A stretch of DNA of 64,000 nucleotides, from NCBI RefSeq assembly GCF_988243305.1, contig NZ_OZ547136.1; one strand, 5' to 3'. The translations under genes were made by a program, and so were the position numbers. Below, one piece after another: positions 9,692-25,885 of this stretch. Under the pieces are notes generated by a model, which saw only the letters and a program-made list of their open reading frames with translations, was not told where the DNA came from and ran no database searches. Position 1 is the stretch's first letter, and the number at the start of each line of letters is the position of its first letter.

Positions 9692-9973
9692 GTTTTTTAT
9701 TAGAGTTAGTAAAAAGTAACATATATTTCTTTAACCTTTTCATTTCAATGAATTAGGAAGTCATTGCGTCATAATGAATCCCCCTCCCTAGTATTGGCCT
9801 TATTTCAATGCCTGATAAATTCTCATTAATGAGAATTTATGTGATCAATCAAAAGAAAATAATAAAAACACAAATAAAACATATAGATATATTGATCTTT
9901 TTCAAGTAAATTTTTCCTAATATCATATAATTTCTCATTTTTCTGAGAATTTTATACTGACTGGAGGAGAACC

Positions 9974-11719
9974 ATGATTTCAGTACTGAGAAACATTCAG
10001 GATGATATATGTAATTATGCCGATGCTATCTCTGGCATAATCGGAACTGATGTAGAAATCATTGATGAGTCATTAATGCGCATAGCTGGTACAGGTCAAT
10101 ACAGGTATATGCTCAATGAGAGTGTGGTAAAAAATGGTTACATTTATCGGCATGTATTACAGGTACGAAAAACAGTTCTGATCACAAATCCAGGAGAACA
10201 TCCTCTCTGCCAGTTATGTGAGAAAAACCATTATTGCTCGGAAATGTTAGATTTGAACACACCCATTTTTCTCAATGAGCGTGTCATCGGAGTCATTGGA
10301 ATTATTTGCTCTACCCAGACACAGCGTAAAATCTTGTTGAACCAGATTGATAAATTTATTACCTTTATTGAGCAAATTGCTGCGATGATTTCCAGTAAAG
10401 TCTTCGAATGTCTGGAACGCCTGCGGGCCCAAGAAACTCTCAGTACATTTCGTCGATTGATTGATGCGATGGATCGCGGTGTTGTAGCTATTGATGGTAA
10501 GGGCCGAATCTGGCACGCTAACAACTCAGCCGATCGCATACTTAACCGCAAGGTTCAAGGTATTACGTTAACGATTGAAACAACCGGGGACATTCTATAT
10601 GGAGATGAAGAAGCATGGTTGACGCTGGAAGGAGAAAGATACCATGTGTTGTGCAAACAAATTTCTCTTTCCTCATTAGATAATGATCGACTCACCATGA
10701 TTATCTTTCGTGATGCACATGACTATCTGAGCACAATAGTTTATCCTTACGAATCTGATGCTCAAGTGCGATTAATTGGACATTCACCACTAATGGAACA
10801 ACTCAGAAGCACCGTTAGAAAAATCGCCAGTAGTTGTGCCAGCGTACTGATCACCGGAGAAAGTGGCTCAGGTAAAGAAGTTGTGGCATTTGCTATTCAT
10901 CAGAATAGTCCACGTAAATCCGCTCCTTTTGTAACAATCAACTGCGCTGCAATCCCAGAGCAACTGCTGGAAAGCGAGCTATTTGGCTACGTGAAGGGGG
11001 CATTTAGTGGGGCGAATCCTAAAGGACGTATAGGTAAATTTGAACTGGCCAATGGGGGAAGTCTCTTTCTCGATGAGATCGGAGATATGCCGCTCCATCT
11101 GCAGGCCAAGCTGCTTAGAGTTCTTCAGGAAAAAAACATTACCCGCGTTGGCTCTAATAATATTATCAATATTGATGTGCGCATTATTGCTGCGACCAAC
11201 AAAAACATCCGTGAAATGGTTGAGAGTAATCAGTTTCGAGAAGACCTTTATTATCGCCTGAATGTGGTTCCTCTAGTAATTCCTTCTTTACGGGAACGAC
11301 GGACTGATATTGCCCTCCTTGCACAATATTTTGCTGATGAGTTCTCTGAAAGCTATCAACGTCCAGTGAAAAAACTCCCCGATGATATAATTAACCATCT
11401 TTACGCTTGGCACTGGCCTGGTAACATCCGTGAATTACGTAATGTCATTGAGTATATTTTTGTTATGCGTGGTGAAACTACTGATATCAACGTCAGCCAT
11501 CTTCCCCCTTATCTGCTCAATGTAGTGGACAACAGCAAAACTGTTATGACAATCAACACCAAGCAGCTACTGAGTCAGGGAAGACAAGCGGAAAGGAGGG
11601 CAATTGAAACTGCATTACAACGATATAGCCCAAGTGGAGAGGGGAAAAAACAAGCTGCCGCTGAATTAGGAATAAGTATTGCTACACTATACCGAAAGAT
11701 AAAACAATATGGTTTATAG
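9974..11719 (+). CDS. Sigma-54-dependent transcriptional activator (bEBP, YgeV-like) with N-terminal sensor domain
   Basis: 581-aa ORF with Walker [15 protein letters not shown] loop, ELFGY motif and C-terminal HTH (...[17 protein letters not shown]). Divergent from the operon. Confidence 0.85.
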
Positions 11720-11889: not shown

Positions 11890-12895
11890 AACACTGGTGA
11901 TGGCGGGGTATTGTTTCATGAAATGCTAAATAACTGCTCCTAATGCCGCTACACTTTAGCCAGCCCATGTTTTCCACCGGGAAATGGGCTGACGGTATCC
12001 ATAAAGTGACGAACCTTTTTCAACAACTGCCACATTGAACGGCACTGGTGATTTCGGGTTACTGTCTCATGAAGCGCCTGCCATAACCGTTCGATATGAT
12101 TGACCCACGGCGAGTAAACCGGCTGATAAATTATCCTGAACTTCGAGTTTGCTTTCAGCCAGCGCAACGTTTCACGGCTTTTGTGGATGATGTAGTTATC
12201 GACAATGAGTGTAATCGTTTTTGCCCGCCGGTATGTCGCTTTCAGGTGTTTTAACAGACTGATAAATAAGGACGAACCTTTACTGTTCCCACCAACGTAG
12301 CTGACTTTTCCCGTACCGCTGTGCAGCGCACCGGCAAGATAGTACTTTTCATTCTGACCCGGCGTGACAACGCGCTTTTGCTGCCCACGTAGCTGCCAGC
12401 CTGCACCAATTTTGGGATTGAGGTGAATATCCACTTCATCTTCGTAAAACACGGGGTTTTCCGCACAGCATTTCGCCAGTGCTTCATGAATAGCGACCAT
12501 TTTTTCTTCTTTGTGTGGGTCACGGATACGCAGTGTCGGCGCAGTTCTCCGCCATACCAGTCCGGCAGCAGGCAACCAGCGGCATATACACTCGGCAGGT
12601 AATGATTTGTCCATTAACACCCGACTGCGTGAACCAGTTAATCCAGGGTCCAACATAGGAACGGACTCAGCAGAGCATTCTAGCAACATCGCTGACACGG
12701 TGGAGCCATTGCAGTATCACCATAGCAGTCAGTCTGCGGGCATAATTTTTATCGTGTGTTTTGTGGATAGCTTTCTGTATCAGGTGTCGTTCGTTACAGG
12801 GAATTGGCTCTATGATTGGCATAGTTCAGTCCGGTTGGTGATTTGTTTTAATTTGTCGATTGAACAAACGCACAATCCGGGCTGAGTTCCCTCAA
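11890..12895 (-). mobile_element. IS630-family element, apparently defective (approximate ends)
   Basis: Transposase reading frame recognisable in two frames: N-terminus MPIIEPIPCNERHLIQKAIHKTHDKNYARRLTAM... from ATG at 12820-12822, ending at an in-frame TGA; C-terminal DDE part in ORF 11949..12698. Element ends not mapped. Confidence 0.6.
11949..12822 (-). pseudogene. IS630-family (Tc1/mariner-like) transposase, disrupted by premature stop/frameshift
   Basis: C-terminal 249-aa ORF ...DPHKEEKMVAIHEALAKCCAENPVFYEDEVDIHLNPKIGAGWQLRGQQKRVVTPGQNEKYYLAGALHSGTGK...DNYIIHKSRET... The N-terminal segment is in a different frame and stops at TGA. Confidence 0.6.
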
Positions 12896-15010
12896 AGTGA
12901 TCTACTATTCCGTGCAGCTATTTAGATCAAGGCTAAGGCAGGAATTTTATGTAATTAATGCTAGAGGTAAACGTTGTGGGTAAATGGTTTGCATGGTTAA
13001 TATTTAACCATAAGGAATAAGAGGTATTGCAGAATTAATTCCGTATAGTTATTCTTCTTGTAAGAAGATTTTTGGGTGCTAGTGATAAATTACAGAGCCT
13101 ATAGAAATGTAAAGTAACAAATCACAGAATAAGGATACAATAGCATAATTTATTGTCACACAAAGCCCCAAGACATTCTGTAATAAAAGGAATTTCCATA
13201 AGAAGAACCATTGACAATAATATGAGCACCACCATTGTAGAGATATTTATTTATGACTGAAAAGGAACTCCAAAATTTGGCTATTTCTATATATGAAAGG
13301 CAACGAGAGAAGTTATCACGTGAGACAGAGTGTAATAAATCTACCTCAATAAGATTTGCCCTAGAAGATTTCCTAAAGAATGCTCCGAAACGTATGCGAT
13401 CTGCGCGTGCTCGCCCCCCAGGGTAATAAATGTCGCAAACTCTGATAATATTTTTATGAAAACAAGCATATTTACAAACGTAAACTAATGATTCTAATTT
13501 GACAGAATATAAACTATAAGTATTAATAAATACCATACGGAGCAGAAAAAAATATCAAAATGAGTTAATTTGATTAGAAAGATTTATCCCATTTATAAAG
13601 ATAATTGTAGAAAGATTCATTGACTCTAAGAGCAAATAAGGAGAGGGCATACAGGATATAACTAGTACTCATAATAAAAATCCCTCTACCGATATAAGTA
13701 AAATTTATTTCCCAGACGAGTTTTTAATAATACATATCAGAAACAGTGCTAAACGATGGGCCGTAATCCTCATGAATAGTAACTCATGGTTATTTTACAC
13801 TGGATTATCGGTGGGGTAATTCTGATAATAGAAACACCTGAAAAACTAAAATCATTAATTTTAAAATACAACCATATACTCATCAAACTCTCGATACACC
13901 ATTCTTCTTTTAAAGTAAAGAAAAACTCTATCTGTGCTTATGTTCCACAACATAAATAGAATAAAAAAATTAAGGATTTATATATTAAGAGTGAATTTAC
14001 ATTTTAGGCTAACTTTAGTACATATTAATTATTGTTTCTTATTAATTTTAAACTTCAAAAGCTATATCAAGGGTTGCCACTTCTATCTGCGACTAACAGC
14101 ATATCTATCAGCAACAATTGATTAATTCCAGCACCTCATGTCGGCGCGATCTGGTGGAAAAGCCATTCCACCAAAACAACCCCAAGCGCTGGCACGTTGG
14201 GGAGATCTGCACTGTGAACCAGCTGGCAATGAGCCGCTTTATTATCGAGTTCGGTGACCGCCTAGACGGTCACTTCTGAGAAAAGGCATTTACACAGAAT
14301 CCTAAACCGGCTCGCAGGTTTCCCCCACTCCCCATCCGCACTCAAGTTCAGACGGCGAATAACATAGCTAATCAGCTCATTACGGAATGACTACCATCCA
14401 GATAGTGTGCCGCAGTTTAAGGTTCGGTCAACCGCTTTTTAACCATTCAGCATTGCCTACAATACAAATAAGGAGCCTTATATTATGCCTAATCTCTGTA
14501 TGCTGCATAGTGCCGGGTGCCTCCCGGTGAGTCCAGCCTGGTGTCTCTGAACCCGCATAGAAAGGATTAGGGTAATATAAAAACAAACACCTGTTACTGA
14601 TATGCTCCGCCGCTTAGGGGAGTTCACCATACATTTTTATTTTTAACAAAAAAGCTCAAGGCGACAATAATAAATACTATAAAATGTGAGCAGCATAACA
14701 TTTTAACTTAGTAACTAATATTCACTAAACTTACCAATTCACATACGCCCCACGGCATGGCAAAGCTTCGTTACGTTAGTTTATACCACATAGGTATTAT
14801 TACCAAACTAAATAATCACTTTACGCTCTGTATTTTGCCTGTTTTCACTGCGGTTTTTCTCAATACCCCGTCCAGAATAACGTTAACACATTATTAACTT
14901 AAATCCGGAGAACATGATGATGACTGGATTCAAACACACTTAACATGAATATCCTCTATCCATTAAAATAACTGTCATTGAGCCGGTTGAAAAAACGAGA
15001 TGAACTATAA

Positions 15011-15184
15011 ACAGATCTAGCAGTGGCATGGCTGGCGAATGGCGTTATCAATCCACTGCCTTTACTGAGTGCTGAATATCCCTTCACTGACCTGGAAGAG
15101 GTGCTACGTTTCGCCGGTGATAAAACCCAGGCATCAAAAGTCCAGCTTGTTTTCTTAGAGATAAATAAAGGAATAATACAATGA
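15011..15184 (+). pseudogene. idnD: 3'-terminal remnant of L-idonate 5-dehydrogenase gene
   Basis: Short in-frame stretch ...AWLANGVINPLPLLSAEYPFTDLEEVLRFAGDKTQASKVQLVF... resembles the IdnD C-terminus. Its stop overlaps the idnO ATG (ATGA). Everything upstream is replaced by AT-rich DNA. Confidence 0.45.
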
Positions 15185-15800
15185 ACAAGCAATTTTCACT
15201 GGCAGAAAAAATATCTTGATTACCGGATCAGCACAGGGCATTGGCTTTTTACTGGCAACCGGTCTGGGTAAATATGGCGCACAAATAATTATTAATAATA
15301 TTACTGCCGAACGCGCATAACTTGCTGTAGAAAAACTCCACCAGGTGGGTATTCAGGCCGTTGCCGCACCTTTTAATGTTACTCATAAACATGAAATTGA
15401 TGCCGCCGTTGAACATATCGAAAAGGACATCGGCCCCATTGATGTGCTGGTGAATAACGCCGGTATCCAGCGCCGTCATCCTTTTACTGAGTTCCCTGAA
15501 CAAGAGTGGAATGATGTGATCGCAGTAAACCAGACCGCCGTGTTCCTGGTGTCGCAAGCGGTAACCCGTCACATGGTTGAACGCAAGGCAGGTAAAGTTA
15601 TTAATATTTGCTCGATGCAAAGCGAACTGGGACGTGGCACCATCACCCCTTATGCCGCATCGAAAGGGGCGGTAAAAATGCTCACCCGCGGCATGTGCGT
15701 CGAGCTGGCGTGCCACAATATTCAGGTCAACGGTATTGCGCCGGGCTATTTCAAAACAGAAATGACTAAAGCACTGGTTGAGGACGAAGCCTTCACCGCC
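15181..15800 (+). pseudogene. idnO: 5-keto-D-gluconate 5-reductase (SDR) gene, inactivated
   Basis: ATG at 15181 reads MNKQFSLAEK then hits a stop after 12 codons. SDR frame resumes in another frame (ITGSAQGIGFLL...) and contains an in-frame TAA at 15318-15320. The SDR catalytic region is intact in ORF 15345..15863 but the 3' end diverges. Confidence 0.6.
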
Positions 15801-15805
15801 TGGTT

Positions 15806-16003
15806 GTGCAAGAACAAATTTCCATTGCGGGTTTTTATGGGCTGGAGATTGGCAGGCAAATGATCCCAAGCCTCGCCAGCGTAATTACTCCCCGTTTTGA
15901 TATTGGTCGGATGGCCGCCCAAATGTTGCTGAGCAAAATTAAGAATAACGATCACAACACTGTTGACCTCGGGTATCAGATTTATCACTGTAACACGCTT
16001 TAG
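15806..16003 (+). pseudogene. idnR: 3' remnant of LacI-family regulator gene, fused downstream of idnO remnant
   Basis: ORF ...[55 protein letters not shown] resembles a LacI/GntR-type C-terminus. The transporter gene expected between idnO and idnR is missing. Confidence 0.4.
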
Positions 16004-16080
16004 GTTATTTTCTCTTCATTACACGTATTCTCTTTGCCGGACGTTGCCTATACTCCAAGCAGGAAACTGGAGGAAATCTC

Positions 16081-16745
16081 ATGAGCGCCTCCCTGTTAAT
16101 TGCCCGCATGCCAATACGGTGGGGTGGGATATCTTTGGCGAGAAAGGCCATCCGGTGCGGGCAACGGTTTCAGACCTAGGGCCACTGTTGCTGGCGTGGC
16201 TGTTGAATCTCAACGATGTGCAGTCTGGCGTGCTGGATATCATTTTCCGCATTGCTGATGATCAGGGATTGTTGCTGCTCGACTTTAAAGATCTGCGGGC
16301 AATTACCCAGTACATCGGCGATAACGCCAAATCCTTCCAGAATCAGTACGGTAATATCAGTAGCGCATCGGTTGGTGCCATCCCGCGCGGATTACTGTCG
16401 CTGGAGCAACAAGGCGCAGAGCATTTCTTTGGCGAGCCGATGCTGGATATCAAAGACTGGATGCGCACCGATACCAACGGTAAAGGCGTTATTAATATCC
16501 TCAGCGCCGAGAAGCTTTATCAGATGCCGAAACTGTATGCAGCCAGTCTGCTGTGGATGCTCTCGGAGCTGTATGAACAATTGCCGGAAGCGGGCGATCT
16601 GGAGAAACCAAAACTGGTGTTTTTCTTCGACGAAGCGCATCTGCTGTTTAACGATGCAGCACTGGTACTGCTGGATAAGATTGAGCAGGTGATAAGGCTT
16701 ATTCGCTCAAAAGGCGTTGTCGTCAGAACGGCTTCCCCTGTGTGA
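16081..16745 (+). pseudogene. yjgR: DUF853/HerA-like ATPase gene with internal deletion and 3' truncation
   Basis: ATG at 16081 encodes MSASLLIAR then shifts frame. ORF 15963..16745 carries the central region (...[24 protein letters not shown]...[17 protein letters not shown]...) but ends prematurely with unrelated residues. Confidence 0.55.
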
Positions 16746-17258: not shown

Positions 17259-17296
17259 AACCATCCGGCTTTTGGGGCCGGATGGTTATTCATTAT
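17259..17296 (-). terminator. Hairpin terminator downstream of integrase gene
   Basis: CCATCCGGC / GCCGGATGG 9-bp stem (17264-17291) flanked by A/T runs on both sides. Confidence 0.5.
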
Positions 17297-17321
17297 TTCT
17301 GTGTCACTGAATTTTCATTCA

Positions 17322-18503
17322 TCAGGTCTGCTCAGAAAGTGAATCAATGTAGTCAGCGTACCATTGCATCATTTCACGGCGACCATCGAGATACTGTGCG
17401 TGGTTATAGGTACCGCGCATGATGTTTTTATCAACATGGGCAAGCTGGAGTTCAATCCAGGCAGAGCTGAAATCATGGTCATGGAGAATGGTACTGAAAG
17501 TATGCCGAAAACCATGAGCTGTAGTGAATGTATGCCAGCCAACTTGTTGAAGAAACTCATTGATGCAACCACGGCTACGAGGTTGATTACCCCTGTATAC
17601 ACCAGGAATAACCAGATCTGAGTTACGGGGATTTGTGATTATTTTTATATCTTTCAATAACATTTGAGCCTGATGAGAAAGAGGAACAACATGCGGCCTC
17701 CGCATTTTCATTCTCTCTTTTGGGATTACCCAGAGGGCATTGGTAAAATCAATTTCATCCCAAGTAGCCAGGCGTAATTCTCCCGTTCGAACAGCAGTCA
17801 GAACCAGTATCCGCGTTACCAGAGACATAAAATTTCCTGAAACTTTCATTTGGTACATGAAAGCTCCTAACTGTTCTTCAGATAGCATCCGTCTCTGCTG
17901 TTTTTCAGGATGCAGAACAACACTGCTGAGAGTCGATGCTGGGTTAATAGTGGCGCGCCCCGTCGCAATGGCATAATCAAATATTTGAGAACAGAGCTGA
18001 CGAGTCTTACGTAACGCTTCAAGTTTGCCATTCCTTTCAATAACCCTCAGTGCATTCAATATTTCCAAGGGGCGAATATCAGCCACAGGACGCTTCCCTA
18101 GCGTGGGATTAATATGATTCTCGAATCTTGCACGCTGGTCCGCTAAATAACCCGCAGTCCAACGACAAGCCATATGTGTGAACAACTCTTCTGCAAGAGT
18201 ACAAAATGTGCATGCAATACTTTCTCTTAGTGCATGTTTACTCGCCTGTTTTTCATATGAAGGATCTTTTCCTTCAGCCAGGAGTTTACGTGCGTCATCC
18301 CGTTTCTGACGCGCCAGAGCCAGTGATATGCCTGGATAGACACCAATCACCAATTTCTTTTCTTTACCCGCAAATCGATACTTCAGATTCCAGTAACGAG
18401 CGCCAGATTTCTTGATAAGAAGGTAAAGTCCTTGACCATCAGAAAGTTTGTAATCCTTGTCAGCGGGTTTGGCCGACTCAATTTGTCGAACAGTAAGTGG
18501 CAT
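17322..18503 (-). CDS. Tyrosine recombinase, P4-type phage/island integrase
   Basis: 393-aa ORF MPLTVRQIESAKPADKDYKLSDGQGLYLLIKKSGARYWNLKYRF... with C-terminal catalytic region ...HGFRHTFSTIL...LAHVDKNIMRGTYNHAQY (R..HxxR..Y). No tRNA gene adjacent. Confidence 0.85.
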   Translation of the reverse strand: MPLTVRQIESAKPADKDYKLSDGQGLYLLIKKSGARYWNLKYRFAGKEKKLVIGVYPGISLALARQKRDDARKLLAEGKDPSYEKQASKHALRESIACTFCTLAEELFTHMACRWTAGYLADQRARFENHINPTLGKRPVADIRPLEILNALRVIERNGKLEALRKTRQLCSQIFDYAIATGRATINPASTLSSVVLHPEKQQRRMLSEEQLGAFMYQMKVSGNFMSLVTRILVLTAVRTGELRLATWDEIDFTNALWVIPKERMKMRRPHVVPLSHQAQMLLKDIKIITNPRNSDLVIPGVYRGNQPRSRGCINEFLQQVGWHTFTTAHGFRHTFSTILHDHDFSSAWIELQLAHVDKNIMRGTYNHAQYLDGRREMMQWYADYIDSLSEQT

Positions 18504-18678
18504 GATGTTAACTCCGAAAAGTAGCCCCCAGAGTAGCCCCCAAAATCATCTTGATGCTCATGGAAGATGGTTTACATCCAGAGTAAAAGAATTTCTGATA
18601 ATACCTTATTTTAACGTGTGTTAAAGGGGATGAAGAGAGTTCTGTTGAAATCAGTCGAAATAAATAGGGCTTAATAAA

Positions 18679-19493
18679 TCCTCCCCGCCGGGGAGTGCTG
18701 GCTGGAACGCCTGCGACTGGCAAAAACGTTGGGCTTCGATTTTGTCGAGATGTCGGTAGATGAAACTGACGAGCGCCTGTCGCGCCTCGACTGGAGCCGC
18801 GAGCAGCGTCTGGCGCTGGTGAATGCGATTGTTGAAACCGGCGTGCGTGTGCCGTCCATGTGCCTTTCTGCCCATCGTCGTTTTCCGTTGGGCAGCGAAG
18901 ATGACGCGGTGCGGGCGCAGGGGCTGGAGATTATGCATAAAGCCATCCAGTTCGCCCAGGACGTTGGCATTCGCGTGATCCAGCTGGCGGGCTATGACGT
19001 TTACTATCAGGAAGTCAATAACGAAACGCGTCGTCGTTTCCGTGACGGCCTGAAAGAGAGCGTTGAGATGGCAAGCCGCGCGCAGGTGACGCTGGCGATG
19101 GAGATCATGGATTATCCGTTGATGAACTCCATCAGCAAGGCGCTGGGTTACGCGCACTATCTCAACAACCCGTGGTTCCAGCTCTACCCGGATATCGGCA
19201 ACCTGTCGGCGTGGGACAACGATGTGCAGATGGAGTTGCAGGCCGGAATCGGGCATATCGTCGCGGTACATGTGAAAGACACCAAACCTGGCGTCTTCAA
19301 AAACGTGCCGTTTGGCGAAGGTGTAGTGGATTTCGAACGTTGTTTCGAAACGCTCAAACAGAGTGGCTATTGCGGGCCGTACCTGATTGAGATGTGGAGC
19401 GAAACGGCGGAAGACCCGGCGGCAGAAGTGGCGAAAGCGCGTGATTGGGTGAAAGCGCGCATGGCGAAAGCGGGCATGGTGGAGGCGGCATAA
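18679..19493 (+). pseudogene. ulaE: L-ribulose-5-phosphate 3-epimerase gene, 5'-truncated
   Basis: Reading frame begins mid-protein (...[32 protein letters not shown]...). The first ~13 codons and upstream ula genes are absent; homology starts abruptly about 180 bp from the integrase start. No ATG. Confidence 0.65.
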
Positions 19494-20179
19494 TGCAAAA
19501 GCTAAAACAGCAGGTATTTGAAGCCAACATGGAGCTGCCGCGCTACGGGCTGGTGACCTTTACCTGGGGCAACGTCAGCGCTATCGACCGCGAACGCGGG
19601 CTGGTGGTGATCAAGCCCAGCGGCGTTGCCTACGAAACCATGAAAGCGGCCGATATGGTGGTGGTTGATATGAGCGGCAAGGTGGTGGAAGGGGAGTATC
19701 GCCCATCTTCCGACACTGCGACGCATCTCGAACTCTACCGTCGTTACCCGTCGCTTGGCGGCATTGTCCATACCCACTCCACTCATGCCACCGCATGGGC
19801 GCAGGCGGGGCTGGCAATTCCGGCGCTAGGCACCACGCACGCCGACTACTTCTTTGGCGATATCCCGTGCACGCGCGGATTAAGCGAAGAAGAGGTGCAG
19901 GGCGAGTATGAACTGAACACCGGCGAAGTGATTATCGAAACGCTGGGTGACGCCGAGCCGCTGCATACGCCGGGGATTGTGGTGTATCAGCACGGGCCGT
20001 TCGCCTGGGGGAAAGATGCTCACGATGCGGTGCATAACGCGGTAGTGATGGAAGAAGTGGCGAAAATGGCGTGGATTGCGCGCAGTATTAACCCACAACT
20101 GAATCACATCGACAGCTTCCTCATGAATAAACACTTCATGCGTAAGCACGGTCCTAACGCTTATTACGGGCAGAAGTAA
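19493..20179 (+). CDS. ulaF: L-ribulose-5-phosphate 4-epimerase
   Basis: 228-aa protein [34 protein letters not shown]...; ATG overlaps the ulaE stop (TAATG). Confidence 0.85.
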
Positions 20180-20307
20180 AACACGCGCTGCGGAAATTTC
20201 CTTCTTCGGGAGATAACTGGTCTAATTCCGCAGCCGTTTTTCAAAAAAAGCCCCCTGCGAAGGGGGCAAAGCAAACTATGGCAATGTTTCGTTGGTTATA
20301 CCTGGTG

Positions 20308-20583
20308 CTAGCGATAAATATCCGCGCTGGCGTGCATATTGCCGTTACTCCCCGGTTCCCGCATCAGAATTACGTGGTAGTACGTTGCGCCCTGCGCATC
20401 TGTTTCTTCATTTAATGCCTGACGTGCTTCACTTTCAGTGGCGAAATTATGATTGATATAAATCACGCCTAAGCTTTGCATATCGTCCATATTTCTGGCC
20501 TGGTGGTTATTGATTTCAATGGCTGCCCATGTATTTGCACTTAGCAAAAGCACAGCCAGAAGGGCTAAAACTCGACTGAACAT
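20308..20583 (-). CDS. yjfY: Small secreted protein YjfY (DUF1471)
   Basis: 91-aa product MFSRVLALLAVLLLSANTWAA... with signal peptide; start chosen at internal ATG 20581-20583. Confidence 0.75.
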   Translation of the reverse strand: MFSRVLALLAVLLLSANTWAAIEINNHQARNMDDMQSLGVIYINHNFATESEARQALNEETDAQGATYYHVILMREPGSNGNMHASADIYR

Positions 20584-20891
20584 AGATACCTCCTCGACGG
20601 CTGACTTTGTGTGCTCTCCTCTGTGATGATCTTCTGATTTAATTTTAATCAATGATAAAGAAGTTGATGGTGACCATTTCTGATGCAGTTGTTCAAAAAA
20701 ACACCATGATGAAGTGTGATGAACTCCAAATCAGCGGTTTAGAGGTTAATTGCGAAAGGGGAGATTTATTTCGGCTCTGCCCTTGAGTTTAGCGGGGCAT
20801 ACAAGTACTATAACGCGTCATTTTTCAGCCGACCTTTAACACGTTCCTTGCCTCCCCGGGATTCGGCTGACCCAGACAGGAGGCTGAATAA

Positions 20892-21305
<414 letters not shown>

Positions 21306-21311
21306 TTTCTG

Positions 21312-21858
<547 letters not shown>

Positions 21859-21887
21859 TCGGTCACGGTCCATTAATACGACTTTGA

Positions 21888-22349
<462 letters not shown>

Positions 22350-22371
22350 TTCGTTATTCAACGAGACGTAA

Positions 22372-22402
22372 AAACGCCGACCATTGGTCGGCGTTTTGCT
22401 TT
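22372..22402 (+). terminator. Rho-independent terminator of rpsF-priB-rpsR-rplI operon
   Basis: ACGCCGACC-ATTG-GTCGGCGT hairpin followed by TTTGCTTT. Confidence 0.7.
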
Positions 22403-22450
22403 ATAGCGAAAGCGTTACAACTGGTAGTATAACGCTCTGATATCTATTAA

Positions 22451-23267
22451 TTAGCTTGTCGCTAACTGTACTTGCGGTTCTTCATCTTTAACTTTGATAA
22501 GCGTCCACAGCGCAATGGCGCCAATAATGTCAAAGAAAGCCAGGGCAATAAAGAACGGCGCGAAGCCGATAATGTGAACGAATGCCCCGATAAACAGGTT
22601 GAAAATCAACTGACCGCTCCACGCACAGGCTCCTGCCATACCCACTGCGGTAGCTACTTCGTCTTTTTTGAACAGATCGCCACCCAGAGTTGCTGCTACA
22701 GTAGAAAGACATTGATGCGAGAACGCGCCAATACTAATCAGTAATACGGCAATGTAGGGATTTTCGACAATACTCACCAGGCCAATCGTCATCATAATGA
22801 CGGCTGCAATAGTGAAGGTAATTCTTCGTGAGTTAATTAAACTCACGCCGCGATCGTGGAAGAACTTCGCGACAAAACCACTGGCTAAACAGCCGAGATC
22901 GCCCAGCAGGAAAGGCAGCCAGACGAACATGGCAATTTCTTTCAGGCTAAAATGCAGCGTTTCGACGAAGAAAATCGGCACCCAGAAGTTAATGGTTCCC
23001 CATGCCGGGTCTGCGAGAAAACGCGCGATGCCAATCCCCCAGAAATTACGTTGGCTGAGGATATGCTTGATTGACGTTTTTTCTTTCTTATCTGTTTTAA
23101 GATGCTGTTCTTGTCCTGATTCAATATAGTGGCGCTCTTCATCAGAAAGGCGTTTGGCATCTTTCGGATCTTTATAACAAAAGAACCAAAATAAAGCCGC
23201 GAGCAAAGCAAGGCTACCTGAAACAATAAACGCAAATTGCCAGCTATGAAACATAATGCACCAGGCA
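22451..23267 (-). pseudogene. Polytopic membrane transporter-like gene (MFS C-terminal half), 5'-truncated by IS1
   Basis: Hydrophobic multi-TM ORF. Its apparent start codon lies inside the IS1 terminal repeat (23268-23281), so the N-terminal part of the gene is missing. Confidence 0.5.
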
Positions 23268-23282
23268 GGTAATGACTCCAAC

Positions 23283-23786
23283 TTATTGATAGTGTTTTAT
23301 GTTCAGATAATGCCCGATGACTTTGTCATGCAGCTCCACCGATTTTGAGAACGACAGCGACTTCCGTCCCAGCCGTGCCAGGTGCTGCCTCAGATTCAGG
23401 TTATGCCGCTCAATTCGCTGCGTATATCGCTTGCTGATTACGTGCAGCTTTCCCTTCAGGCGGGATTCATACAGCGGCCAGCCATCCGTCATCCATATCA
23501 CCACGTCAAAGGGTGACAGCAGGCTCATAAGACGCCCCAGCGTCGCCATAGTGCGTTCACCGAATACGTGCGCAACAACCGTCTTCCGGAGACTGTCATA
23601 CGCGTAAAACAGCCAGCGCTGGCGCGATTTAGCCCCGACATAGCCCCACTGTTCGTCCATTTCCGCGCAGACGATGACGTCACTGCCCGGCTGTATGCGC
23701 GAGGTTACCGACTGCGGCCTGAGTTTTTTAAGTGACGTAAAATCGTGTTGAGGCCAACGCCCATAATGCGTGCAGTTGCCCGGCAT
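23283..23786 (-). CDS. insB: IS1 transposase InsB frame
   Basis: 167-aa ORF ...[44 protein letters not shown]... Confidence 0.85.
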
Positions 23787-23980
23787 CCAACGCCATTCAT
23801 GGCCATATCAATGATTTTCTGGTGCGTACCGGGTTGAGAAGCGGTGTAAGTGAACTGCAGTTGCCATGTTTTACGGCAGTGAGAGCAGAGATAGCGCTGA
23901 TGTCCGGCAGTGCTTTTGCCGTTACGCACCACCCCGTCAGTAGCTGAACAGGAGGGACAGCTGATAGAAACAGAAGCCAC
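23705..23980 (-). CDS. insA: IS1 InsA (DNA-binding repressor)
   Basis: 91-aa [43 protein letters not shown]... Confidence 0.85.
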
Positions 23981-24099
23981 TGGAGCACCTCAAAAACACC
24001 ATCATACACTAAATCAGTAAGTTGGCAGCATCACCCTGGAAGCCAGACGTAAGGTCATCAAAGAGACAATCCTTAGCTGGCTTTTGGTTGACCCTTCAT

Positions 24100-24738
24100 C
24101 TACCGCGCACGAATAAAACTGCCATCCGGCTGGCGGGTGAACAGGACCTGTTGATTATTCCCCGTATCAATGGTTAAGCCCGTCACCACGCCGCTGGCGT
24201 TCTGGCGGATTTTCACCATTTGCCCGTTTTGCAAATTACTCAGCGGCTTACCCGCGCCTTCTACCTGCGCCATTGCATAGACATCGGTAGCGGGCAGTCC
24301 GTGGTCGCGGAACAGCTGCGCCATCGTTTTACCGGGTTCGACACGGTAAGAGCGCCATTGATTATCAATTCCGCTATCTGGCTGGAATGGTTGTGTTTGG
24401 GTAGTTTGCGGCTGTTCTTCTGGCTGGCCTTCCTGTATAGGTTCTGGAGCGACCGGAGCCACCTGATCAGGATCATTTTGTGGTGTGACTAATTGCGCCC
24501 GCAGCTGTTCTTCTGTCGGCGGTTGTGATTGCGACTGAATATCTAACTGCGCTTCACGCGTCACCACCGGCGCGTTGGGCGTATCATCAGATGGAAGCAG
24601 AAATCCGACCACCAATATAATGGCGGCAATAATGATCCCCCGACGATGCATCGGCGGCAGCGGGTCCATGAAGCGAAAATTGTCCGGCGCGTGCCAGACT
24701 TTCTCCAGGGTTGGTTTTAGTTCAAAGCGCCCGGGCAT
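24100..24738 (-). CDS. ytfB: Cell-division/OapA-like LysM-domain protein YtfB
   Basis: 212-aa [34 protein letters not shown]... with Q/P-rich linker. Confidence 0.8.
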
Positions 24739-24956
24739 GGTTTCCTCCTGCTCCGCGTCTTGTTCCTCAATCATAGCCTATGAATAAGCTAACGCTATGA
24801 TGTCCGTGGTAAACCCGCCTTTATTATATTCATACGGGATATTGCTATTGTTTCTTTTTCCCCGGGATTTGTCATCATTCCTGCGACAAAGTTTTACCCA
24901 AAGAAGTGTGGCTGATATGCTGCCCGCTACTTTTATACCCTAAGAAAGGAAATACG

Positions 24957-25577
24957 ATGACCACCCCAACTTTTGACACCATCGAAGCGCAAGCAAGCTA
25001 CGGCATTGGTTTACAGGTAGGCCAACAACTGAGTGAATCTGGCCTGCAAGGGCTGCTGCCGGAGGCGCTGGTGGCTGGTATTGCAGATGCGCTGGAAGGC
25101 AAACATCCGGCTGTTCCGGTTGATGTGGTGCATCGCGCGCTGCGTGAAATCCACGAACGCGCCGATGCCGTTCGTCGTCAGCGTTTCCAGGCGATGGCTG
25201 CCGAAGGTGTGAAATATCTTGAAGAAAATGCCAAAAAAGAAGGTGTGAACAGCACCGAATCTGGCCTGCAATTCCGCGTGATCAACCAGGGTGAAGGCGC
25301 AATTCCGGCACGTACTGACCGCGTTCGTGTTCATTACACCGGTAAACTGATCGACGGCACCGTGTTTGACAGCTCCGTTGCTCGTGGTGAACCCGCTGAA
25401 TTCCCGGTTAATGGCGTGATCCCTGGCTGGATTGAAGCACTGACTCTGATGCCGGTAGGTTCTAAATGGGAACTGACTATCCCGCAGGAACTGGCATATG
25501 GCGAGCGCGGCGCAGGCGCATCCATCCCTCCGTTCAGCACCCTGGTGTTTGAAGTCGAACTGCTGGAAATCCTCTAA
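24957..25577 (+). CDS. fklB: FKBP-type peptidyl-prolyl cis-trans isomerase
   Basis: 206-aa [20 protein letters not shown]... with FKBP domain (...[16 protein letters not shown]...). Confidence 0.9.
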
Positions 25578-25885
25578 GCAGCGCATTCTGTTCCCCTCGA
25601 ACCAGAGGGGAGCAGGCATTCAGCAATAAACCCTTCAGTTTGCCAAACGGCGCTATTTTGTGTTGCAAAGACCCCGTAAGCGTGTATTTTTGTGAGCTGT
25701 TTCGCGTTATCACCGTGATATGACACTCACTTTAAACATAAAATTAACATTAGATCTAAATCTTAGTATTCATCCCGCGTATTGTTACCTAATATCGATG
25801 AGTCCCGATACAGATTCGTCGTATCATAGACTGACTAAAGGCCGTAGAGCCTGAACAACACAGACAGGTACAGGAAGAAAAAAAC

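Follow-up and report, generated by a model that had tools for sequence, protein, structure and literature searches.

An IS1-bounded deletion allele of an accessory seven-gene island between rplI and ytfB of Escherichia coli

The rplI–ytfB interval of the window (the whole 64-kb stretch of DNA analyzed here) is a deletion allele of an accessory seven-gene island that occurs between these two genes in about a third of E. coli. To judge from the arrangement of the sequence, the event was most probably a classical IS1 adjacent deletion and thus an ordinary instance of a well-known process. The best explanation, which we rate at a probability of about 0.6, is a two-step history in which IS1 first inserted and its transposase then brought about an adjacent deletion.

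The sequence and the list of open reading frames (ORFs) between positions 21000 and 26000 give the gene order rpsF-priB-rpsR-rplI, a hairpin, a minus-strand ORF (22451-23281), a 768-bp element, ytfB on the minus strand, fklB and cycA. The hairpin between rplI and the minus-strand ORF looks rho-independent. The features are as follows, with L001 denoting the coordinates of the corresponding locus in E. coli L73.

21900..22349, plus strand: rplI (ribosomal protein L9), an ORF that equals the annotated rplI of L73 by alignment
22451..23267, minus strand: remnant (3' 817 bp) of an MFS (anion:cation symporter-like) transporter gene; PF07690 and TIGR00893; 100% identical to L001 9102-9918
23261..23267, no strand: CCAGGCA (7 bp), which in intact L73 stands directly before both breakpoints
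23268..24035, minus strand: complete IS1 (IS1A-like), 768 bp, from its sequence ends, Pfam and NCBIfam
23705..23980, minus strand: insA, 91 aa (PF03811 and PF12759)
23283..23786, minus strand: insB' frame, 167 aa (PF03400, E=6e-78), entered by a -1 frameshift from insA at TTAAAAAAC
24036..24116, plus strand: last 81 bp of a TetR/AcrR regulator gene, 100% identical to L001 from 17301
24100..24738, minus strand: intact ytfB (OapA/LysM-like cell-division protein; PF04225 and PF08525), coordinates transferred from the L73 annotation

In this arrangement rplI is the conserved left anchor of a variable interval. As the first-pass annotation of this DNA had stated, ytfB lies directly on the other side of IS1, 64 bp beyond the element. 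The flanking genes stand in the L73 order from ulaE' through rplI and again from ytfB and fklB to the end of the compared L73 locus; cycA comes next after fklB, as annotated in other strains.

The 768-bp element is a bona fide IS1. Its ends, GGTAATGACTCC... and ...GGCAGCATCACC, can be read directly in the sequence, and its size and its imperfect terminal inverted repeats (GGTAATGACTCC... and GGTGATGCTGCC...) are those of the IS1 family. The repeats occupy about 23268-23290 and 24013-24035 if their length is, as we take it to be, 23 bp. The insA and insB' frames on the minus strand match the Pfam families Zn_ribbon_InsA, HTH_Tnp_IS1 and DDE_Tnp_IS1 and the NCBIfam model for IS1 transposase (NF033558). 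The -1 frameshift motif (A6C; TTAAAAAAC) is at about 23722-23731 on the minus strand. With its full length, two open transposase frames and this motif, the element looks functional. E. coli S1-CAM-01-C carries an IS1 of identical sequence (100%), annotated by RefSeq as IS1A family, and the 64-kb window contains no second IS1 copy. A normal IS1 insertion leaves a duplication of 8-9 bp (PMC12428005). We confirmed the earlier observation that no target-site duplication surrounds this copy: the 9 bp on its left are CACCAGGCA and those on its right CTGGAAGCC. The duplication would be missing because a rearrangement came after the insertion, and the identity of the element as IS1 is unaffected.

On its rplI side, IS1 cuts off a transporter gene, as had been proposed. 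Native transporter sequence ends at 23267 in the alignment to L73, exactly at the end of IS1. The full-length gene in L73 (L001 9102-10379) encodes 425 aa, and the remnant encodes the C-terminal 271 of these. The first 461 bp, corresponding to 153 codons and a split codon, are lost. The earlier claim that an N-terminal half is missing is therefore accurate as to the end-point and too high as to the amount, which is 36% of the protein. Profile searches agree with this picture. The remnant ORF (22451-23281, minus strand) encodes the C-terminal portion of an MFS protein (PF07690, E=3e-24), and the N-terminal part is missing, since the match to TIGR00893 covers only profile positions 136-398 of 399. 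General membership in MFS_1 is clear (PF07690, 85.9 bits against a cut-off of 33.4). Assignment to the D-galactonate transporter subfamily TIGR00893 falls below the curated cut-off of 395 bits for the remnant (170) and for the full-length L73 protein (315).

The remnant is a pseudogene. Its frame opens past a TAA inside IS1, and the only in-frame start within IS1 is a TTG (23281-23279). This finding contradicts the previous suggestion that the IS1 terminal repeat supplies an ATG; the first ATG of the ORF (23254-23252) encodes a methionine inside the original transporter. An exact-protein look-up found no record of the 276-aa TTG-started remnant and did find the 267-aa ATG-started form. In the two kinds of place listed, the latter is on record because the strains concerned split the intact gene into ORFs of 155 and 267 aa, and the record is therefore uninformative on the IS1 junction. 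Transcription of the remnant could occur at most by read-through from IS1, as far as the sequence allows a prediction. The ORF should be annotated as a pseudogene and not as a gene.

The ancestral state of the interval is recognizable in E. coli L73. BLAST aligns window 18681-23267 with L001 5332-9918 and window 24036-25653 with L001 17301-18918. The 918 bp to the left of IS1 and the entire second block are 100% identical to L73, so that the sequence nearest the junctions is identical on either side. IS1 replaces exactly L001 9919-17300, or 7,382 bp. In L73, rplI is followed directly, without yjfZ, by a seven-gene island: the 425-aa MFS transporter, a 690-aa FAD-dependent (fumarate-reductase-like flavoprotein) oxidoreductase, a CoA-transferase, an enoyl-CoA hydratase, a TIM-barrel protein of the sugar-phosphate isomerase/epimerase family, an SDR of the 3-ketoacyl-ACP-reductase type and a divergent TetR/AcrR regulator. 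By NCBIfam these proteins can be assigned only to general families. The TetR gene (L001 16734-17381, 648 bp) overlaps the 3' end of ytfB with its own 3' end. What is missing from the window is the start of the transporter gene (461 bp), the complete set of five enzyme genes and most of the TetR gene (567 of 648 bp). We found no trace of the missing 7.4-kb segment elsewhere in the 64-kb window. The transporter gene of the island is present at the rplI–ytfB site in 1,688 of 5,426 complete E. coli genomes.

Upstream of the locus the window carries an IS630 fragment, a truncated idnO and an integrase inside ulaE. The window-type integrase-ulaE junction occurs in 57 E. coli genomes at 96-97% identity. 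Relatives that share the upstream context (an identical 393-aa integrase, the truncated idnO and the IS630 fragment) have 99.2% DNA identity. Two of them (L026 and L027) contain the intact 425-aa transporter and the oxidoreductase, and their sequence at the transporter breakpoint is identical to that of L73; four others (L024, L025, L028 and L031) have the yjfZ haplotype.

The first-pass annotation had taken a K-12-like interval as the starting point and had named yjfZ and ytfA as the deleted genes. That DNA is missing between rplI and ytfB is correct; the proposed identity of the genes and the K-12-like ancestor are not, because the flanks are 100% identical to L73, a carrier of the seven-gene island, and the L73 haplotype has no yjfZ. 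In K-12 the interval reads rplI-yjfZ-ytfA-ytfB without any IS, and ytfA corresponds to a 402-bp 3' fragment of the TetR gene of the island. The K-12 ytfA pseudogene is thus a relic of the L73-type island. In contrast, yjfZ represents another haplotype of this hypervariable interval and was at no time part of the ancestral allele of the window. Like the window, K-12 is devoid of the island transporter and enzyme genes and has kept only a 3' fragment of the TetR gene beside ytfB. Unlike the window, it contains no IS, has yjfZ beside rplI and retains 402 bp of the TetR gene instead of 81 bp. The comparison with the K-12 interval, which had been suggested earlier, also shows that homology between K-12 and L73 breaks at L001 9053 and 16979, and not at the window positions 9918 and 17301. 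The K-12 arrangement is not the ancestor of the window allele.

These data also bear on the idea that the interval had become short beforehand, being K-12-like or deleted earlier, and that IS1 simply inserted there and caused no loss by itself. K-12 and many other strains do have a short interval without any IS. The anatomy in the window is nevertheless not that of a simple insertion: the 8-9 bp duplication is absent, and the far side of IS1 is TetR/ytfB and not the 5' part of the transporter gene. An IS-free joint between mid-gene transporter and mid-gene TetR sequence occurs in 0 of 5,426 genomes, and the end-points of K-12 differ. We regard this explanation as excluded by the absent duplication and the absence of an IS-free joined genome in this collection, and leave it next to no probability. 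What the window does contain, relative to L73 with its identical flanks, is one IS1 exactly at a deletion joint.

We examined how often IS1 has acted at this locus by using junction probes in both IS1 orientations against the 5,426 complete E. coli genomes. The probes catch IS1 ends only within about 650 bp of the two flanks of the window. We mapped 29 loci to L73 coordinates. Ten simple IS1 insertions were found, each with a duplication of 8-9 bp:

FACU 2024: L001 10172-10180
TUM1857: L001 10192-10200
YZ22MPE6: L001 10285-10293
JNEC-KY203: L001 10297-10305
UTI89-type: L001 10329-10337
J-8: L001 10344-10352
CFSAN061762: L001 10376-10384
30EVA2: L001 10498-10505
UID2309220015: L001 17295-17303
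CH459: in a K-12-type haplotype

Sixteen other deletions, each with a single IS1, no duplication and unique end-points, were mapped as well. Nine of these have the following left and right end-points:

C21-type: L001 10191 and 17200
S1-CAM-01-C: L001 10167 and 14998
PEC389: L001 10287 and 14912
14EC033: L001 10365 and 17362
KH_005: L001 13286 and 17201
AZ 186: L001 15504 and 17324
TUM17543: L001 16490 and 16906
EC96: L001 15006 and 16795
JNEC-KY203: L001 10505 and 17307

The left flank of the remaining seven (TST3, LR-45, M171-1, ES5, AR_0369, X14-3 and Res13-Lact-ER07-18) lies in other haplotypes or far off; in Res13-Lact-ER07-18 the joint connects TetR with an integrase fragment linked to tRNA-Phe.

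None of the 26 mapped IS1 events shares a junction with the window (9918/17301). Since all end-points differ from those of the window, the events are independent. IS1 erosion of the rplI–ytfB interval is therefore recurrent: the 5,426 complete genomes yielded 26 such events. The junctions fall in two A+T-rich stretches of the locus (GC 0.33-0.40) and form fine clusters at 17295/17301/17307, 17200/17201, 17266/17271, 14998-15006 and 10498-10505. To call the locus an IS1 "hot spot" expresses an impression and not a measured enrichment over the genome-wide density of IS1 sites. An orientation bias of IS1 at the locus was considered and rejected, as both orientations are found.

In the first step of the proposed history, IS1 would have inserted, the probable target being the 3' end of the TetR gene, which is A+T-rich and where other strains have IS1 ends no more than 6 bp away. 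In the second step, the IS1 transposase would have carried out an intramolecular transposition from the other end of IS1 into the transporter gene, with loss of the intervening DNA and of one of the two copies of the 9-bp duplication made at insertion. The anatomy of the locus, the exact end-points, the lack of a duplication and the intact state in relatives are direct observations; from these we infer which event came first and that the transposase acted. The right junction at 17301 lies inside a cluster of IS1 ends, next to those at 17295-17303 (the simple insertion in UID2309220015) and 17307 (JNEC-KY203), and the left junction at 9918 lies outside any cluster. This distribution modestly favors insertion into TetR first and a leftward deletion thereafter. 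The suggestion of an IS1-mediated adjacent deletion in the first-pass annotation is hence backed, as the best single explanation, by the anatomy of the window and by the comparison with intact relatives. A precedent comes from a long-term evolution experiment, in which 14 of 14 duplication-free events that combined IS150 with a deletion went back to an insertion already present at the site (PMC11708052).

The presumed precursor, IS1 with a duplication at L001 17301-17309 or 9910-9918, was absent from the 5,426 E. coli genomes, from species-representative genomes and from metagenome contigs. Either window junction in one piece (150 bp of flank and 150 bp of IS1) occurs in 0 of the 5,426 complete genomes, and these probes picked up other IS1 events at the locus. 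Exact junction strings of 27-33 bases gave 0 matches in the species-representative genomes and metagenome contigs. Closest to a precursor junction is the simple insertion in UID2309220015, 6 bp away and made by a different IS1 variant (98.6% identity). The window deletion is private to its lineage among the collections searched.

A duplication-free IS beside a deletion can result from adjacent deletion or from recombination between IS copies, and the latter is an accepted source of missing duplications (PMC11708052). Here, IS1 may have inserted twice, independently and in one orientation, into the transporter gene (duplication CACCAGGCA) and into TetR (duplication CTGGAAGCC). RecA-dependent recombination between the copies would then have deleted the interval and left one hybrid IS1. 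The end product, one IS1 without a duplication, is identical to that of an adjacent deletion. Both regions have been struck repeatedly by IS1 in other strains, and JNEC-KY203 does contain a pair of IS1 copies in direct orientation at the locus, with 211 bp between them. Our survey does not rigorously discriminate between the two routes. However, no genome has IS1 at either of the needed positions or two IS1 copies flanking an intact island. Among the other mapped IS1 junctions, the one closest to the left junction at 9918 lies about 250 bp away (10167), and the other same-orientation deletions that end in the transporter gene end at 10167-10365. Recombination also takes one independent event more than adjacent deletion. 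We consider it the less likely of the two origins of the window allele, though one of appreciable probability.

One detail of the breakpoints calls for separate discussion. In intact L73 the heptanucleotide CCAGGCA stands directly before both of them, at L001 9912-9918 and 17294-17300. Because of this identity, the sequences on either side of IS1 together give CCAGGCA^CTGGAAGCC without any duplication. For randomly paired sites in the locus, an identity of at least 7 bp has P=1.9e-4. This test was made post hoc, and chance is for this reason the default reading of the 7 bp. The canonical model of adjacent deletion does not predict the identity. We tried four other models: slippage between a duplication copy and TetR, descent from an insertion of the UID2309220015 type, annealing-assisted target capture, and end-joining to the IS1 end. 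All were rejected, as the flanks that they predict differ from those observed.

An event in which deletion and insertion were coupled would take the identity at face value. In such a single step, the joint would have formed between the two CCAGGCA repeats, and IS1 would have integrated there without a duplication, as proposed for IS5 and IS481 "at the centre of a deletion". The 7-bp identity, its probability for random pairs and the unduplicated flanks speak for this scenario. We know of no IS1 chemistry for an insertion without a staggered cut. Moreover, the seven other deletions mapped on L73 at both ends show an identity of only 0-1 bp, and the family-wise chance of the post hoc test is about 1.5e-3 with eight events examined. 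A deletion-first origin through an IS1-free, CCAGGCA-joined allele is unsupported, as this allele occurs in 0 of 5,426 genomes. It has been argued that some rearrangement-associated IS movements make no duplication and match neither standard route (PMC11708052). On balance, a coupled origin of the window allele is improbable. It is equally doubtful that CCAGGCA reflects something other than chance, be it a coupled IS-plus-deletion event by short-homology pairing or a homology of the donor flank that guided the target choice of IS1 within the molecule.

The preferred two-step deletion implies that the segment was lost and not moved. Intramolecular transposition of IS1 can produce inversions as well as deletions, and the window covers 64 kb of the genome. 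The 7.4-kb segment might accordingly reside elsewhere beside another IS1 after an inversion or translocation. Against this stand the lack of any trace of the segment and of a second IS1 in the 64-kb window. An inversion should also have altered the flanking gene order, which is collinear with L73. We judge such a relocation to be very improbable, even more so than a coupled event.

Under the two-step deletion, a catabolic cluster of transporter, flavoprotein reductase, CoA-transferase, hydratase, isomerase, reductase and repressor was irreversibly lost at this locus. The rplI–ytfB interval is hypervariable, and at least four alternative gene contents occur there: the MFS/CoA island, a set of TRAP-transporter genes, yjfZ, and a HipA toxin-antitoxin module. 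The analysis is of use for the annotation and typing of this locus, and it illustrates a well-known process, not a new one. Of lasting value are the identification of the correct ancestral haplotype, the derivation of K-12 ytfA and the recurrent erosion of the interval by IS1.

Adjacent deletions by IS1 have a long record. The gal deletions of Reif and Saedler (1975) are said to be of the IS1-mediated adjacent type, and Turlan and Chandler (1995) reportedly described replicative IS1 deletions. The window shares with the classical cases a variable second end-point, the lack of a duplication and a loss of kilobase size; the 7-bp identity at the breakpoints is absent from the classical description. 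Direct observation of nfsB deletions next to IS1 (Wan et al. 2023, PMC10569738) showed losses of 11-66 kb that began at a fixed point, the end of IS1, and extended to a variable one. As in the window, a single IS1 is kept at the joint and the deletion starts at the IS1 end. In contrast to these observed events, we infer the window event from its natural end product. IS5 in E. coli C and IS481 in P. fluorescens (PMC11708052) resemble the window in that an IS without a duplication occupies the center of a deletion. In those cases new IS copies arrived with the rearrangement in the laboratory, whereas the two-step route is fully sufficient for the window. At the rplI–ytfB locus itself, the C21-type, 14EC033, PEC389 and JNEC-KY203 deletions involve the same element and the same lost genes or a subset of them, again without a duplication. 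Their end-points lie in the 5' region of the transporter gene and in the TetR gene, and the subtype and orientation of IS1 vary among them.

The interval between rplI and ytfB is hypervariable in E. coli. Comparison of its contents across loci L002, L012-L020, L022 and L024-L031 revealed at least four alternatives:
The MFS/CoA-enzyme island
A TRAP-transporter set
yjfZ (DUF2686), in some strains with the MFS island also present (e.g. strain J-8)
A HipA/HTH toxin-antitoxin pair, sited between rplI and the transporter gene

Even where the island is kept whole, it may carry a broken transporter gene. In strains other than that of the window (L005/L006 2527-3804), this gene is split into two ORFs of 155 and 267 aa with no IS involved, which is a second, independent route of inactivation. 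The break lies near the point where IS1 cuts the transporter gene of the window.

We also found IS1 target sites that apparently recur among strains. The 9-bp sequence CAGCCGACG (positions 14998-15006 of L001, the E. coli L73 locus with the intact island) is bracketed by the IS1 junctions of two different deletions, those of S1-CAM-01-C (L011) and EC96 (L036). The two junctions look like products of one insertion site. Since the IS1 copies of these strains lie in opposite orientation, the identical target was apparently hit twice. AAAATTCT (L001 10498-10505) was apparently likewise used twice, in 30EVA2 and JNEC-KY203. In Res13-Lact-ER07-18 (L037 1088-2266), IS1 directly links the TetR remnant beside ytfB to an integrase fragment that has tRNA-Phe and dsbD/dicD as neighbours. 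This junction implies that a far more extensive IS1-bounded event, either a deletion or a rearrangement, had one end in the same TetR hot zone.

Further features of the window, among them an integrase gene, are as follows:
9974-11719, sigma-54-dependent transcriptional activator, 581 aa, apparently intact, adjoining the IS630 fragment
11949-12698, IS630-family transposase fragment
Within 11949-16745, HerA_C (yjgR) fragment, identified by comparison with relatives
15345-15863, truncated idnO (gluconate 5-dehydrogenase)
Within 17322-18700, minus strand, tyrosine integrase, 393 aa, directly adjoining 5'-truncated ulaE

The DNA upstream of the integrase (11949-16745) is decayed. Its idn region matches E. 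coli at only ~95.8%. That idn and ula sequences stand side by side here points to a more extensive rearrangement. The top match of the sigma-54 activator is PrdR/AtoC-type and falls under the cut-offs; the integrated element probably carries this gene as cargo.

The match to the normal ula operon begins only at 18681; ulaA-D, expected upstream of ulaE, are absent from the window, and the whole window contains no tRNA genes. Among complete E. coli genomes, 57 share the integrase-ulaE adjacency (96-97% identity), and ulaE seems to be the seat of an integrative element.
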